Positions 32,772-35,830 of a stretch of DNA of 64,000 bases are shown piece after piece. The notes under the pieces were generated by a model that was given only the letters and a program-made list of their open reading frames with translations, did no database searches and was not told the DNA's origin. The stretch's first letter is position 1; each line of letters begins with the position of its first letter. This DNA is from Escherichia coli (lineage in GTDB: Bacteria; Pseudomonadota; Gammaproteobacteria; Enterobacterales; Enterobacteriaceae): NCBI RefSeq assembly GCF_024700885.2, contig NZ_CP117016.1. One strand, 5' to 3'. The position numbers were made by a program, and so were the translations under genes.

Positions 32772-33059
32772 ATGGATATAACACCTTTCCTTCATGCACT
32801 TTGTGCTGTGGCTGCGCAGGTACTGGTTGGTCTTTTTACCGGAAACTGGGCTTACGGGGCGATAGCCGGTTGTACGTTCTTCATTGCGCGTGAACACACC
32901 CAGGCAGAATATCGCTGGATCGAAATGTTCGGGCATGGCAAGCGAATGAATATGCCGTGGTGGGGCGGTTTTGATACACGTGCATGGGATGTGGCAAGCC
33001 TGATGGATTTTGCTGTGCCGGTGGTGGCGTGTCTGCTGATCTGGCTGTTGATCCGTTAA
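32772..33059 (+). CDS. Small membrane protein, unknown function
   Basis: 95 aa with 2-3 hydrophobic segments; RBS AAGGAGG. Confidence 0.3.
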   Translation: MDITPFLHALCAVAAQVLVGLFTGNWAYGAIAGCTFFIAREHTQAEYRWIEMFGHGKRMNMPWWGGFDTRAWDVASLMDFAVPVVACLLIWLLIR

Positions 33060-33061
33060 AT

Positions 33062-33110
33062 ATAAAAAGCCGCAGTAACTTGCCATGGCAGGATACTGCG
33101 GCTGGTTTGT
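33062..33110. terminator. Bidirectional terminator between tail-fibre module and RT gene
   Basis: 10-bp stem AGCCGCAGTA/TACTGCGGCT (33068-33103) with A-run before and T-rich run after. Confidence 0.45.
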
Positions 33111-33166
33111 GAGTTTAAATAGTGTGTTTATTGCGGTATATTTAAAGGACTTAATGGATTACATAT

Positions 33167-34537
33167 CTATGATATTCCTGAGATATCCTCTTCAAGCTCT
33201 TTTACTGATTTCGCAATTTTAAATTTAAACTTCCTCTCTATTTCACTATTGCTAAGTTTTTTTTCCTTCTCTTTACCTATCCACATAGAAACAAGTTCTC
33301 GTTTCTGAGATATATGTAAATTATCAAAGTTAGGTATGTATTTAAAAGTCTCCGCTCTACCTCTGCGGAGTTCATAGAAAGTTTTAATCAAAGACTTTGG
33401 TTTTATTTCTGATGAAAGGCCGAATCGGTGGATAAGATTATTGATAGTATGATTAACAGAGCGAAGTTGAGCTGTTGAGGTTATTTGTGAGAAGTACGAT
33501 ACCCATCCCAATCGTTTACCTTCAAACACACATCCCGTAATTCTGAGATTTAGTTTCCACTGACAATATGCAACAGCTCGTTCTTTATCACGCTTACTTT
33601 TAGCTTGTAGTAGAGCGTGCCTGTATGCAGTAAAAATCCTTGCTAAAGATGACTCAAATCTAAGAATGCTCTCATGTTTTATCAATAATTCTCGATTTTC
33701 TATGTGGTATCCCAAAAAGTTAAAACTTTCATCCAAGCTGCCTACTTTGGATTTTGAGTTCTCTTCATTTAATGGATGTGGGTTTAAATTTAATGATTGA
33801 AGCTTATCAATGATATGAGAAGCTATTTTTGTTGCTTGATATTTTGGTGTTAAAATAAGAATGTCATCAACGTATCGCATGTACCATATGTCATGCATTT
33901 TATTGATTTCATCATCAAAATTAGATAGTGATATTTCAGCTAAAATGTTTGATATCGCTAATCCCTGAGGTACCCCTCTGGTATTATTCGGGATACCTTT
34001 GCTTCCTGTTGTTCCACTTACAGTAGGCACGATTAATGATGATGTTATTAACTGTCTAATTTCTTTTTTTCTAATTTTATTTTTTATTGTATTAATTATC
34101 AATTTATGTTCAATTGAAGGATAGAAACTTTTAAGATCTATTTTTGCATATTCAGCATAAAGACTGCTGTTTAATGCTTCTTTCAATGAGTCAATTACTG
34201 TATGTGGTAGTTTTAATCTGGAGTTAGGATATATTTCCGTAAGGCATTCACAGAGAGTTCTAAGAGTAATTCTGTCCCTAGCAGTTGGTATGGAAATCTG
34301 TCTGGGTGTAGAGTTAGCGCCTTTAGATATTAATTTTTCTTTATATGCTGTAAATTTGTAATTGCCAGAGTTAACCTTTTCAAAAATGAAAGCGATCTCA
34401 TTTTTTATTGTCAAATCAAGTTTTGATGGGCGAATCCGATCTATGCCAATCGCTCCTGATTCTTTGATTTTTTCAGTGTATACTTTTAGAAGGTTTTTTT
34501 TCGAGAATGACTTTTTAAAAATTCTGCTTGCAGTCAT
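33167..34537 (-). CDS. Reverse transcriptase (defence-associated type, unclassified)
   Basis: Ordered RT motifs: RQISIPTARDRITLRTL, KIDLKSFYPSIEH, GVPQGLAISNILAEISLS, YMRYVDDILIL, FNFLGYHI; ~30% GC; alternative TTG start at 34543. Confidence 0.8.
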   Translation of the reverse strand: MTASRIFKKSFSKKNLLKVYTEKIKESGAIGIDRIRPSKLDLTIKNEIAFIFEKVNSGNYKFTAYKEKLISKGANSTPRQISIPTARDRITLRTLCECLTEIYPNSRLKLPHTVIDSLKEALNSSLYAEYAKIDLKSFYPSIEHKLIINTIKNKIRKKEIRQLITSSLIVPTVSGTTGSKGIPNNTRGVPQGLAISNILAEISLSNFDDEINKMHDIWYMRYVDDILILTPKYQATKIASHIIDKLQSLNLNPHPLNEENSKSKVGSLDESFNFLGYHIENRELLIKHESILRFESSLARIFTAYRHALLQAKSKRDKERAVAYCQWKLNLRITGCVFEGKRLGWVSYFSQITSTAQLRSVNHTINNLIHRFGLSSEIKPKSLIKTFYELRRGRAETFKYIPNFDNLHISQKRELVSMWIGKEKEKKLSNSEIERKFKFKIAKSVKELEEDISGIS

Positions 34538-35066
34538 AGTCAATCCAAAGATATATTAATGGGAGTATATAAAGGGCGGCAGTAGTAAATATTCGAAGTA
34601 ATATCCATAAAATAACAATTATTTTTTCTTTTTGTGTGGGGATCCTCGTCGTAAGTCCAACTTGAGTTACCCTTGAAATTTTATCATCTATGTCACGGTG
34701 ATTCTCAACCTCATTGAGCAAATTAAAATATTTTTCTTTCTGTTCAAGAGTTAACTGTTGACTGGTGGTAATGTCAAAATAGAGTCGCTGTAGTGCAATA
34801 TAATTCCTTCTCATGGCTATTGCTCGACCACGAAAATCTAGGTTAGATACGATCAGCGAAATACCCAGTAGGGCCACCGAAAGTATTGCCGCAACGATAT
34901 CTGTGTTATCTCCTAGAACTTTTGGAAATCGCAACGTTACAATTGAAAGTACCGCACTCAATATAGCATACCAAACGAGGATAAATTGAGAGTGCTTTTC
35001 AAGCCATTCTAGTCGATGGTGCGCTTGGATACGGGCTTTATATGTAAACCAAATATTGTCATGCAT
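34515..35066 (-). CDS. Small multi-TM membrane protein, candidate effector partner of RT
   Basis: 183 aa; hydrophobic helices FILVWYAILSAVLSIVTL, IVAAILSVALLGISLIVSNL, IIVILWILLRIFTTAALYILPLIYLWI; 3' end overlaps RT start; RBS AAGGA. Confidence 0.6.
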   Translation of the reverse strand: MHDNIWFTYKARIQAHHRLEWLEKHSQFILVWYAILSAVLSIVTLRFPKVLGDNTDIVAAILSVALLGISLIVSNLDFRGRAIAMRRNYIALQRLYFDITTSQQLTLEQKEKYFNLLNEVENHRDIDDKISRVTQVGLTTRIPTQKEKIIVILWILLRIFTTAALYILPLIYLWIDYDCKQNF

Positions 35067-35288
35067 AAAAGATCCTTTTTAAAAGCGGAAGGGGCAGGAT
35101 ATATTGGAATCATTGAACATCCTGCCCGGCAGGATCAGTGAGCATAAGCTCAACAGTAAAATATTACTGTTCATTATCAGAGCCGCCCTTGCATGCACAA
35201 GAGGAAAAACCTGCCCCATCCTTTTGAATTATTACAATTTAATGATCTTAAAGTCAATACAAGTGAATGGTGTCCAGAGATGATGAAC
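35067..35288 (-). promoter_or_regulatory. Structured leader upstream of membrane-protein/RT operon
   Basis: Three copies of GGGGCAGG/CCTGCCCC in alternating orientation; hairpin ending ~25 nt before start codon. Confidence 0.3.
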
Positions 35289-35537
35289 TTAATGAACAAA
35301 CCACTCGTCAGCAGACTCCCAGGTATCTTTCAGAGTTTCCTGAACAAAAGTTTTAGCTGAATCTTTATCGGCGGTGCGCGTAACAGAAAGGCCATCGTTG
35401 CTGGTGGCTTTTACGATCACCTCTACATCGTCATAACGCTTACTGATGCGTCGAGTTAATTCTTCCTTTAACGCATCCACAGCACCGCTTGGCATTTTAG
35501 TCATTTTCTCTTTAGCTATGCAGATCTCAATACGCAT
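35289..35537 (-). CDS. DinI-like protein
   Basis: 82 aa; MRIEI...AKEK...LPAGA-DAL--EL-RRI...[10 protein letters not shown] pattern of the DinI family. Confidence 0.75.
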
Positions 35538-35550
35538 AAAAATCCCTCTA

Positions 35551-35598
35551 CACTGTGTTTGTATACAGTGTTATTTTTAACTGTATGAATAAACAGTG
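35551..35598 (-). promoter_or_regulatory. Two tandem LexA (SOS) boxes in dinI-like promoter
   Basis: CACTGTgtttgtatACAGTG (35551-35570) and AACTGTatgaataaACAGTG (35579-35598), both CTGT-N8-ACAG, 14-61 nt upstream of the start codon. Confidence 0.6.
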
Positions 35599-35617
35599 TC
35601 AATAGAACAAAGATTGC

Positions 35618-35740
35618 TGCATGTACAAATGTTCTTTGGCTACAAATACACCTACTGATCATGTTCTGCTATGCTCTGATACCTCCAAAATGTACAATCA
35701 GCGGCATGAATTTTTCTTTGTACATATGATTGTACATAAT
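35618..35740. repeat. TGTACA hexamer array in phage-derived prfC upstream region
   Basis: TGTACA at 35622, 35691, 35719, 35731; last two as direct repeat TTGTACATA separated by 3 nt. Confidence 0.4.
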
Positions 35741-35756
35741 TAAAGAGACAACAATT

Positions 35757-35830
35757 ATGACAAGCCTTTTGGCCGCAGAGGTAGCGAAAAGAAGAACCTT
35801 TGCAATTATTTCTCACCCGGACGCCGGTAA
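35757..35830. other. Inferred attR / prophage-chromosome junction within 5' end of prfC
   Basis: prfC N-terminus reads [15 protein letters not shown], differing from the canonical RF3 N-terminus as I recall it, then converges on conserved sequence. Confidence 0.4.

Follow-up and report, generated by a model that had tools for sequence, protein, structure and literature searches.

A dinI-like cassette with two predicted LexA operators at the prfC end of an Escherichia coli lambdoid prophage

In a 64,000-nucleotide stretch of an Escherichia coli genome (contig NZ_CP117016.1; the window), a small gene with the pattern of the DinI family lies on the minus strand, two palindromes resembling LexA boxes precede it, and genes for a membrane protein and a reverse transcriptase follow it. 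The initial annotation proposed that transcription induced by DNA damage could read through from this gene into a candidate defense system. The locus raises the question of whether the gene is controlled by LexA, and whether it stands alone or shares a transcription unit with its neighbors. The DNA and its comparisons show the features of the sequence, the family of the protein, the quality and conservation of the operators, and the prophage context. Together they point, with a probability of roughly 0.8, to a self-contained, SOS-inducible 'moron' of ~315 bp at the attR-proximal end of a lambdoid prophage in prfC, beside which the DRT10 defense system is a separate element with its own promoter.

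The gene and its place in the prophage

The coding sequence was delimited from the list of open reading frames and from family profiles. It occupies positions 35289..35537 on the minus strand, stop codon included, with the ATG at 35537-35535 and the TAA at 35291-35289. The 82-amino-acid product carries the RefSeq name 'DinI-like family protein' (WP_001217550.1). It was matched by the Pfam family DinI (PF06183, E 1.8e-19) over the full length of the model (1-63 of 63) and by PHROG 189, 'RecA filament binding protein DinI' (5.8e-31), and shares 46% identity with DinI of strain K-12 (MG1655); the family pattern noted in the initial annotation was thereby confirmed. The solved DinI chain (PDB 1GHH/7YWA) aligned with it from end to end, and the C-terminal TWESAD(D/E)WF was kept, aligning to ETWESADDWF of 1GHH and K-12 DinI. 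Membership in the DinI family is indicated by the full-length profile match, the single domain of ~80 amino acids, and the acidic C-terminal segment. The NCBIfam equivalog model for DinI (NF007893) gave 73.2 bits, and because this lies below the 111-bit cut-off for orthology, the protein is, judged by its profile scores, a DinI-like paralogue and not a dinI orthologue; the same function as that of DinI is assumed. A RecA-binding role has been assigned to the C-terminal helix of DinI (Voloshin et al. 2001, as listed in PMC3121763), and the protein stabilizes RecA at stoichiometric levels and inhibits its co-protease and recombinase activity at high levels (PMC6590174).

The window was found to be chromosomal DNA of E. 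coli in which a lambdoid prophage sits within the 5' end of prfC; the phage genes follow the order replication, Q, methyltransferase, lysis, head, tail, J, lom, and tail fibers. The attachment site was mapped by aligning the window with prophage-free K-12 and with phage cdtI (attR/attB/attP). The att identity core ATTATTTCTCACCC lies inside prfC at 35805..35818 and marks the prophage's right end. It is preceded by the first 16 prfC codons in a surrogate version supplied by the phage (35757..35804, plus strand) and by a divergent region of 219 bp, also phage DNA, at 35538-35756. All DNA to the left of 35805 is phage, the dinI-like gene and its operators included, and the segment is shared with phage cdtI and others; the gene had rightly been called prophage-borne. 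Besides the first codons, the phage also supplies a surrogate prfC promoter region. PrfC in the window is a phage/host chimera, since the prophage replaces both the promoter and the first codons of the gene and the N-terminus reads unlike that of K-12. The arm at prfC was carried by ~698 complete E. coli genomes. In phage cdtI, the cassette lies between the cargo (cif and cdtABC, convergent) and attP/int, and in prophages integrating at dusA it directly follows the integrase gene.

Several further features of the prophage were recorded. Four TGTACA palindromes were found within 115 bp (35622-35736) between the dinI promoter and the start of prfC, with only four others in the remaining 64 kb, and TGTACA-like motifs also occur on the other attP arm of phage cdtI. 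These palindromes may be arm sites of the integrase or excisionase, or operators of the surrogate prfC promoter. In strain FDAARGOS_536 (locus L104, 6697-7920), 100% identical over positions 33000-35760 of the window, the integrase gene of the prophage carries an internal stop and has been annotated as a pseudogene, and for this reason the prophage may be locked in place there. A 95-amino-acid hydrophobic protein (PHROG 1443) is encoded at 32772-33059 on the plus strand, between the tail-fiber genes and the 3' end of the reverse transcriptase gene, and in APEC O78 (L085) an internal stop makes its gene a pseudogene. Additionally, a yecD-site prophage with DRT10 (L083, 3460-4362) encodes a macro-domain protein between its tail-fiber and tail-fiber assembly genes.

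Promoter and candidate LexA operators

On the minus strand upstream of the gene, the promoter scan placed a -35 hexamer TTGACA at 35597..35602, and scan and sequence together placed a -10 region TAAAAAT at 35573..35579. The -35 is the consensus, and the -10 is weak, with only four of six consensus positions. Operator O2 (CACTGTTTATTCATACAGTT, minus strand, 35579..35598) fills the spacer between the two elements, while operator O1 (CACTGTATACAAACACAGTG, minus strand, 35551..35570) begins 3 nt beyond the -10 of the predicted promoter and lies over the predicted transcription start, expected around 35565; the -10 sits in the 8-bp gap between them. A Shine-Dalgarno-like AGAGGGA, read from the sequence, follows at 35543..35549 on the same strand, 5 nt before the ATG. 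The CTGT-N8-ACAG cores of the operators are at 35553-35568 (O1) and 35581-35596 (O2), 28 bp apart from center to center, and the whole 64-kb window contained four matches to this pattern, with 0.57 expected. The two boxes had been reported at exactly these positions. Their earlier description as 'centred 14-61 nt upstream' is correct for the extent of the boxes, which span 14-33 and 42-61 nt before the ATG, the word 'centred' being loose.

Both operators were scored with a LexA weight matrix built from 26 E. coli operators, of which the dinI operator alone was checked against the K-12 sequence. O2 received 23.0 bits and O1 18.8 bits, within the range of 13.4-27.7 bits of this training set, and shuffled windows yielded 0.01 sites per 64 kb at 18.8 bits or more.

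The conservation of the promoter was followed in 80 IMG/VR loci that encode the DinI-like protein of the window at 98-99% identity. Enough upstream DNA was present in 65 sequences (63 of the 80 loci, the window, and phage cdtI), which were reduced to 21 distinct variants. Among these, one of the 16 CTGT/ACAG columns varies, versus 17 of the 49 other columns from the -35 to the ATG (one-sided Fisher p = 0.023), in a comparison whose power is limited because the variants are closely related. The arms of O1 read TACTGT...ACAGTA in most relatives. Upstream of the -35, 15 of 15 columns differ. Homology between prophages was observed to start exactly at the -35, the upstream edge of the conserved block, and to end at the dinI stop codon (35289), and these sharp edges set the cassette off as a mosaic unit of ~315 bp. 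Of 5426 complete E. coli genomes, 917 contained its promoter/operator segment.

Both boxes combine a score in the range of known operators, an overlap with the predicted promoter or start, and conserved arms, as expected for the LexA regulon; their LexA quality, asserted earlier from the core pattern, is upheld by the matrix scores and by a placement apt to occlude RNA polymerase. The palindromes might instead have arisen by chance, serve a phage regulator, or form part of a hairpin on the plus strand. Such a reading would fit the plus-strand scan, where O1 and an adjoining T-run (35550-35581) appear terminator-like, and also the search with the idealized consensus TACTGTATATATATACAGTA, which returned no match at three or fewer mismatches and reached neither operator. 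That null result carries no information, since natural operators depart from the ideal in their spacers, the operator of K-12 dinI (ACCTGTATAAATAACCAGTA) among them, and only three of the nine pairs in the plus-strand hairpin are G-C. The arms are conserved while the spacers drift, and two sites of such quality at a distance of 28 bp are ~100-fold rarer than chance allows. A non-LexA origin of the palindromes is considered very improbable on these grounds.

The plus-strand hairpin could give prfC weak protection from antisense transcripts coming through dinI, but it is probably a side effect of the palindrome. The surrogate prfC promoter was also considered as a target of LexA; this was rejected, as the prfC ATG is 159 nt away from the boxes, which lie upstream of it, and no promoter-like site on the plus strand overlaps them. 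Elsewhere in the window, a third site of LexA quality (TACTGTAAAAATAAACAGTG, 7135-7154, 22.6 bits) overlaps codons 3-10 of a phage DNA adenine methyltransferase gene (7127-8179), in a segment conserved in SfV, mEp460, and Stx2c phages.

The cassette as proposed would consist of a sigma-70 promoter with a consensus -35 and a weak -10 bracketed by the two LexA operators, followed by a short leader, a ribosome-binding site, and the 82-amino-acid protein. As long as a cell is undamaged, RNA polymerase would be blocked by LexA dimers bound at O2 and O1. Once RecA filaments bring about the self-cleavage of LexA, the promoter would fire and the DinI-like protein would accumulate. Its C-terminal TWESADEWF would then dock it on the RecA filaments, which it would modulate as host DinI does. 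The binding of LexA, the induction by damage, the binding of RecA, and any effect on prophage induction are expected here by analogy. A tuning of prophage induction by the DinI-like protein is a conjecture, and in Gifsy prophages non-polar deletions of the dinI homologues were without effect on induction (PMC3121763); the finding would matter more if the phage paralogue tuned the RecA-dependent cleavage of repressors. Judged by its relatives, the prophage dinI cassette is a common, ordinary SOS-inducible phage cassette. Its value for annotation would be that of a widespread, putatively SOS-inducible unit that borders, on one side, a hot spot for cargo in lambdoid prophages.

The DRT10 neighbor and the 222-nt interval

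The SLATT_5 effector gene of DRT10 spans 34515..35066 on the minus strand (NCBIfam SLATT_5, 132.9 bits; PADLOC RTasSLATT, 7.9e-57). The gene of the UG17/DRT10 reverse transcriptase, taken from its RefSeq start, spans 33167..34537 on the same strand and overlaps the 3' end of the SLATT gene (PADLOC RT_UG17, 2.1e-158). The dinI-like gene had been placed 222 bp upstream of this pair; the distance to the SLATT start (35066) and the shared strand are correct, but the interval is not empty. It begins with a junction of 31 nt (35258..35288, minus strand) from the dinI stop to a promoter-like site, and homology to other dinI-carrying phages ends at 35289, next to this junction. The promoter-like site, TTGACT-N18-(TG)n-AATAAT, lies at 35228..35257 on the minus strand, with 10 of 12 matches and the TG present. 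It is followed by the probable DRT10 ncRNA (35081..35223 with approximate ends, minus strand), which was predicted to form a basal stem, four small stem-loops, and a single-stranded loop of 20 nt.

The fold of this ~140-nt RNA was calculated at -53.7 kcal/mol, and the surrounding 271 nt gave a z of -3.4. A homologue with 69% SLATT identity, found in an unrelated context with no dinI nearby, keeps both promoter hexamers and the fold, and an alignment fold of the two contained two compensatory pairs; beyond its -35, on the upstream side, the homologue shows no relation to the window. The 222-nt interval is read as the promoter and RNA gene of DRT10 because both the promoter-like site and the ncRNA-like fold are present and conserved in this homologue. 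A search of Rfam over 34800-35800 returned only a chance snoRNA match (E 0.95), with no curated family for a DRT10 ncRNA or a dinI leader. DRT10 has been described as a tripartite system with an ncRNA of 137-143 nt encoded directly upstream of SLATT (PMC12632851; bioRxiv 10.64898/2026.04.29.721553), and the window combines a UG17 reverse transcriptase, SLATT_5, and a structured RNA at that position. The plain 'membrane-protein/RT operon' of the initial annotation was not confirmed: the neighbor is DRT10, with its own conserved promoter and a structured ncRNA of ~140 nt, and what had passed for spacer is re-read as part of that system.

Within the 20-nt open loop of the ncRNA (GUUCAAUGAUUCCAAUAUAU) stands CAAU-GAUUC-CAAU, whose A-B-A' layout has a period of 9 nt and resembles the template from which DRT10 is described as making tandem-repeat cDNA. 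The homologue with 69% SLATT identity (L102, 1-3848) lies between a SRAP gene (YedK-like, 'SOS response-associated peptidase') and a convergent gene for a UmuC-like Y-family polymerase, a neighborhood different from the dinI context and again SOS-flavored.

A gene of this kind behind LexA boxes could also head a Gifsy-type LexA-controlled operon of dinI and an antirepressor, given that Gifsy-1/2/3 show a dinI-antirepressor-irsA layout, fused or reversed in phages 186 and PSP3 (PMC3121763). The content of the interval argues against this, as it is filled by the DRT10 promoter and ncRNA, and its only same-strand reading frames, of 40 and 46 amino acids, overlap both elements. In phage cdtI, dinI is followed by a convergent cdtC, and the place of the cassette is the attR end and not the region behind the replication genes. 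Moreover, in a strain with a segment 100% identical to positions 33000-35760 of the window, the prophage has an XRE-family repressor of 230 amino acids, a length that suggests the self-cleaving CI type. With no small antirepressor gene directly downstream of dinI in the window, the Gifsy-type operon was rejected, and hardly any weight is left to it.

The more substantial alternative is that transcription from the LexA-controlled dinI promoter crosses the 31-nt junction and continues into the ncRNA, SLATT, and reverse transcriptase genes of DRT10, so that DNA damage or prophage induction raises or qualitatively changes its expression. The two elements share a strand, the DRT10 -35 comes just 31 nt after the dinI stop, and neither standard nor relaxed scans of the minus strand detected a terminator-like hairpin from the dinI stop to the SLATT start; a local hairpin at the 3' end of dinI lacks a U-tract. 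A different segment follows dinI in 71 of the 80 loci; there, a GC-rich hairpin stands ~60 nt after the gene and, in the two examples examined, the genes are convergent; this hairpin of the commonest downstream context is absent from the DRT10 context. Because no terminator was found between dinI and DRT10, read-through is physically possible.

Against such coupling, DRT10 has its own strong promoter-like site, kept in the homologue with no dinI nearby, and in the model system of subtype UG17-A the ncRNA has been reported as a discrete RNA transcribed from its native promoter (bioRxiv 10.64898/2026.04.29.721553); an ncRNA lengthened at its 5' end may not function. The prfC, yecD, and dusA attachment sites all show an identical dinI-DRT10 junction, and the co-orientation of the two elements therefore goes back to one insertion that was spread by flanking recombination. 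Additionally, DRT10 persists where dinI is damaged, has lost its promoter, or is set apart from it. It is intact beside a frameshifted dinI (L083 and L084), it is intact in two loci in which the 5' half of dinI and both boxes have been replaced and no CTGT-N8-ACAG remains (L086 and L089), and it is still there in loci with an IS between it and dinI (L064/L092 and L085), the reverse transcriptase being broken in L085. Most cargo behind dinI in the remaining contexts that were examined is convergent with it, as are cdtABC and an invertase. Of the marks of an operon, co-orientation without a terminator-like hairpin was found, whereas DRT10 brings an internal promoter and the linkage was not seen in independent contexts.

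The comparative sequence data indicate that DRT10 is cargo of its own, which entered a cargo hot spot by a single insertion directly behind the dinI stop. Read-through may occur, but the arrangement would not be an evolved operon, and the comparisons gave no sign of evolved coupling. The proposed coupling thus keeps the shared strand and the lack of a terminator-like hairpin in its favor; set against these are the separate DRT10 promoter, the single origin of the junction, and the persistence of DRT10 without an intact dinI. Altogether, an SOS effect on DRT10 through read-through is judged unlikely, and the finding would gain in importance if such transcription altered DRT10 activity.

A more elaborate version would make the dinI promoter a second, damage-triggered input of DRT10, in which read-through lifts SLATT and reverse transcriptase or creates a 5'-extended ncRNA, and the DinI-like protein modulates the loading of RecA on the single-stranded tandem-repeat cDNA of DRT10, normally removed by exonuclease I (SbcB). 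If true, the SOS response and reverse transcriptase-based immunity would be one circuit; the idea is speculative and carries a far lower probability than read-through itself.

Two observations were made on the sequences adjoining dinI in these loci. In L086 and L089 (300-1530), the dinI promoter and 5' half are replaced by a divergent gene for an XRE-type HTH protein and a gene for an ImmA/IrrE-like metallopeptidase with a HELGH motif, and a dinI remnant (residues 43-82) is left beside the intact DRT10. In another dusA-site prophage (L077, 1789-2793), the cargo after dinI is a co-oriented gene for a 334-amino-acid protein, 270 bp downstream.

Comparison with known systems

The literature on the E. 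coli cassette was found to hold incidental mentions only, and no paper describing its operators was found; a preprint on radioresistance in O157 was rejected as a source, since it concerns the chromosomal dinI. The window shares with the published DRT10 the RT_UG17, the SLATT_5, and an RNA of ~140 nt that lies directly upstream of SLATT and folds into a basal stem and small stem-loops; neither DRT10 paper mentions dinI, LexA, or SOS. In a transcriptome, a dinI-like gene of strain CFT073 moves together with sulA, umuD, and recN.

DinI of K-12 (b1061) belongs to the same fold family, with 81 versus 82 amino acids and with the N-terminal MRIE and the C-terminal TWESAD(D/E)WF common to both. As in the cassette, the K-12 gene has a LexA-box promoter close to its ATG. 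However, a single box lies over the -10 in K-12 dinI, whereas two operators bracket the -10 in the phage-borne cassette, and the promoter DNA of the two is not homologous.

The closest experimental precedent comes from Salmonella, where LexA-regulated prophage homologues of dinI are already documented, and the E. coli cassette would, by analogy, be a further case. The three prophages Gifsy-1/2/3 likewise carry DinI-family genes directly behind LexA boxes. Their LexA box lies 19 bp from the ATG, nalidixic acid induces the genes 4.6- to 23-fold, and replacement of the box region abolishes the induction of the dinI homologue by mitomycin (PMC3121763; PMC8072944), so that both SOS induction and its dependence on the box have been shown in Gifsy. 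The Gifsy dinI has one box, lies downstream of the replication genes, and heads an operon with the antirepressor and irsA; the cassette, in contrast, has two boxes, lies at the attR end, and is followed by no antirepressor.

A LexA-controlled phage gene with a DinI-like module is also found in Tum of coliphage 186 and in the split tum/dinI of PSP3 and Fels-2. In 186, a P2-like phage, the DinI-like part is the C-terminal half of a 146-amino-acid antirepressor, whereas the cassette encodes a stand-alone protein of 82 amino acids in a lambdoid prophage. Practically the same cassette is that of orf30 of phage cdtI (YP_001272543; RefSeq family WP_001217550), whose DNA is 98% identical to the window over the stretch that starts at the stop codon, takes in both boxes, and reaches the att core. 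Phage cdtI uses the same prfC attachment arm but differs in the cargo next to the cassette, with cif and cdtABC on the opposite strand where the window has DRT10 on the same strand.
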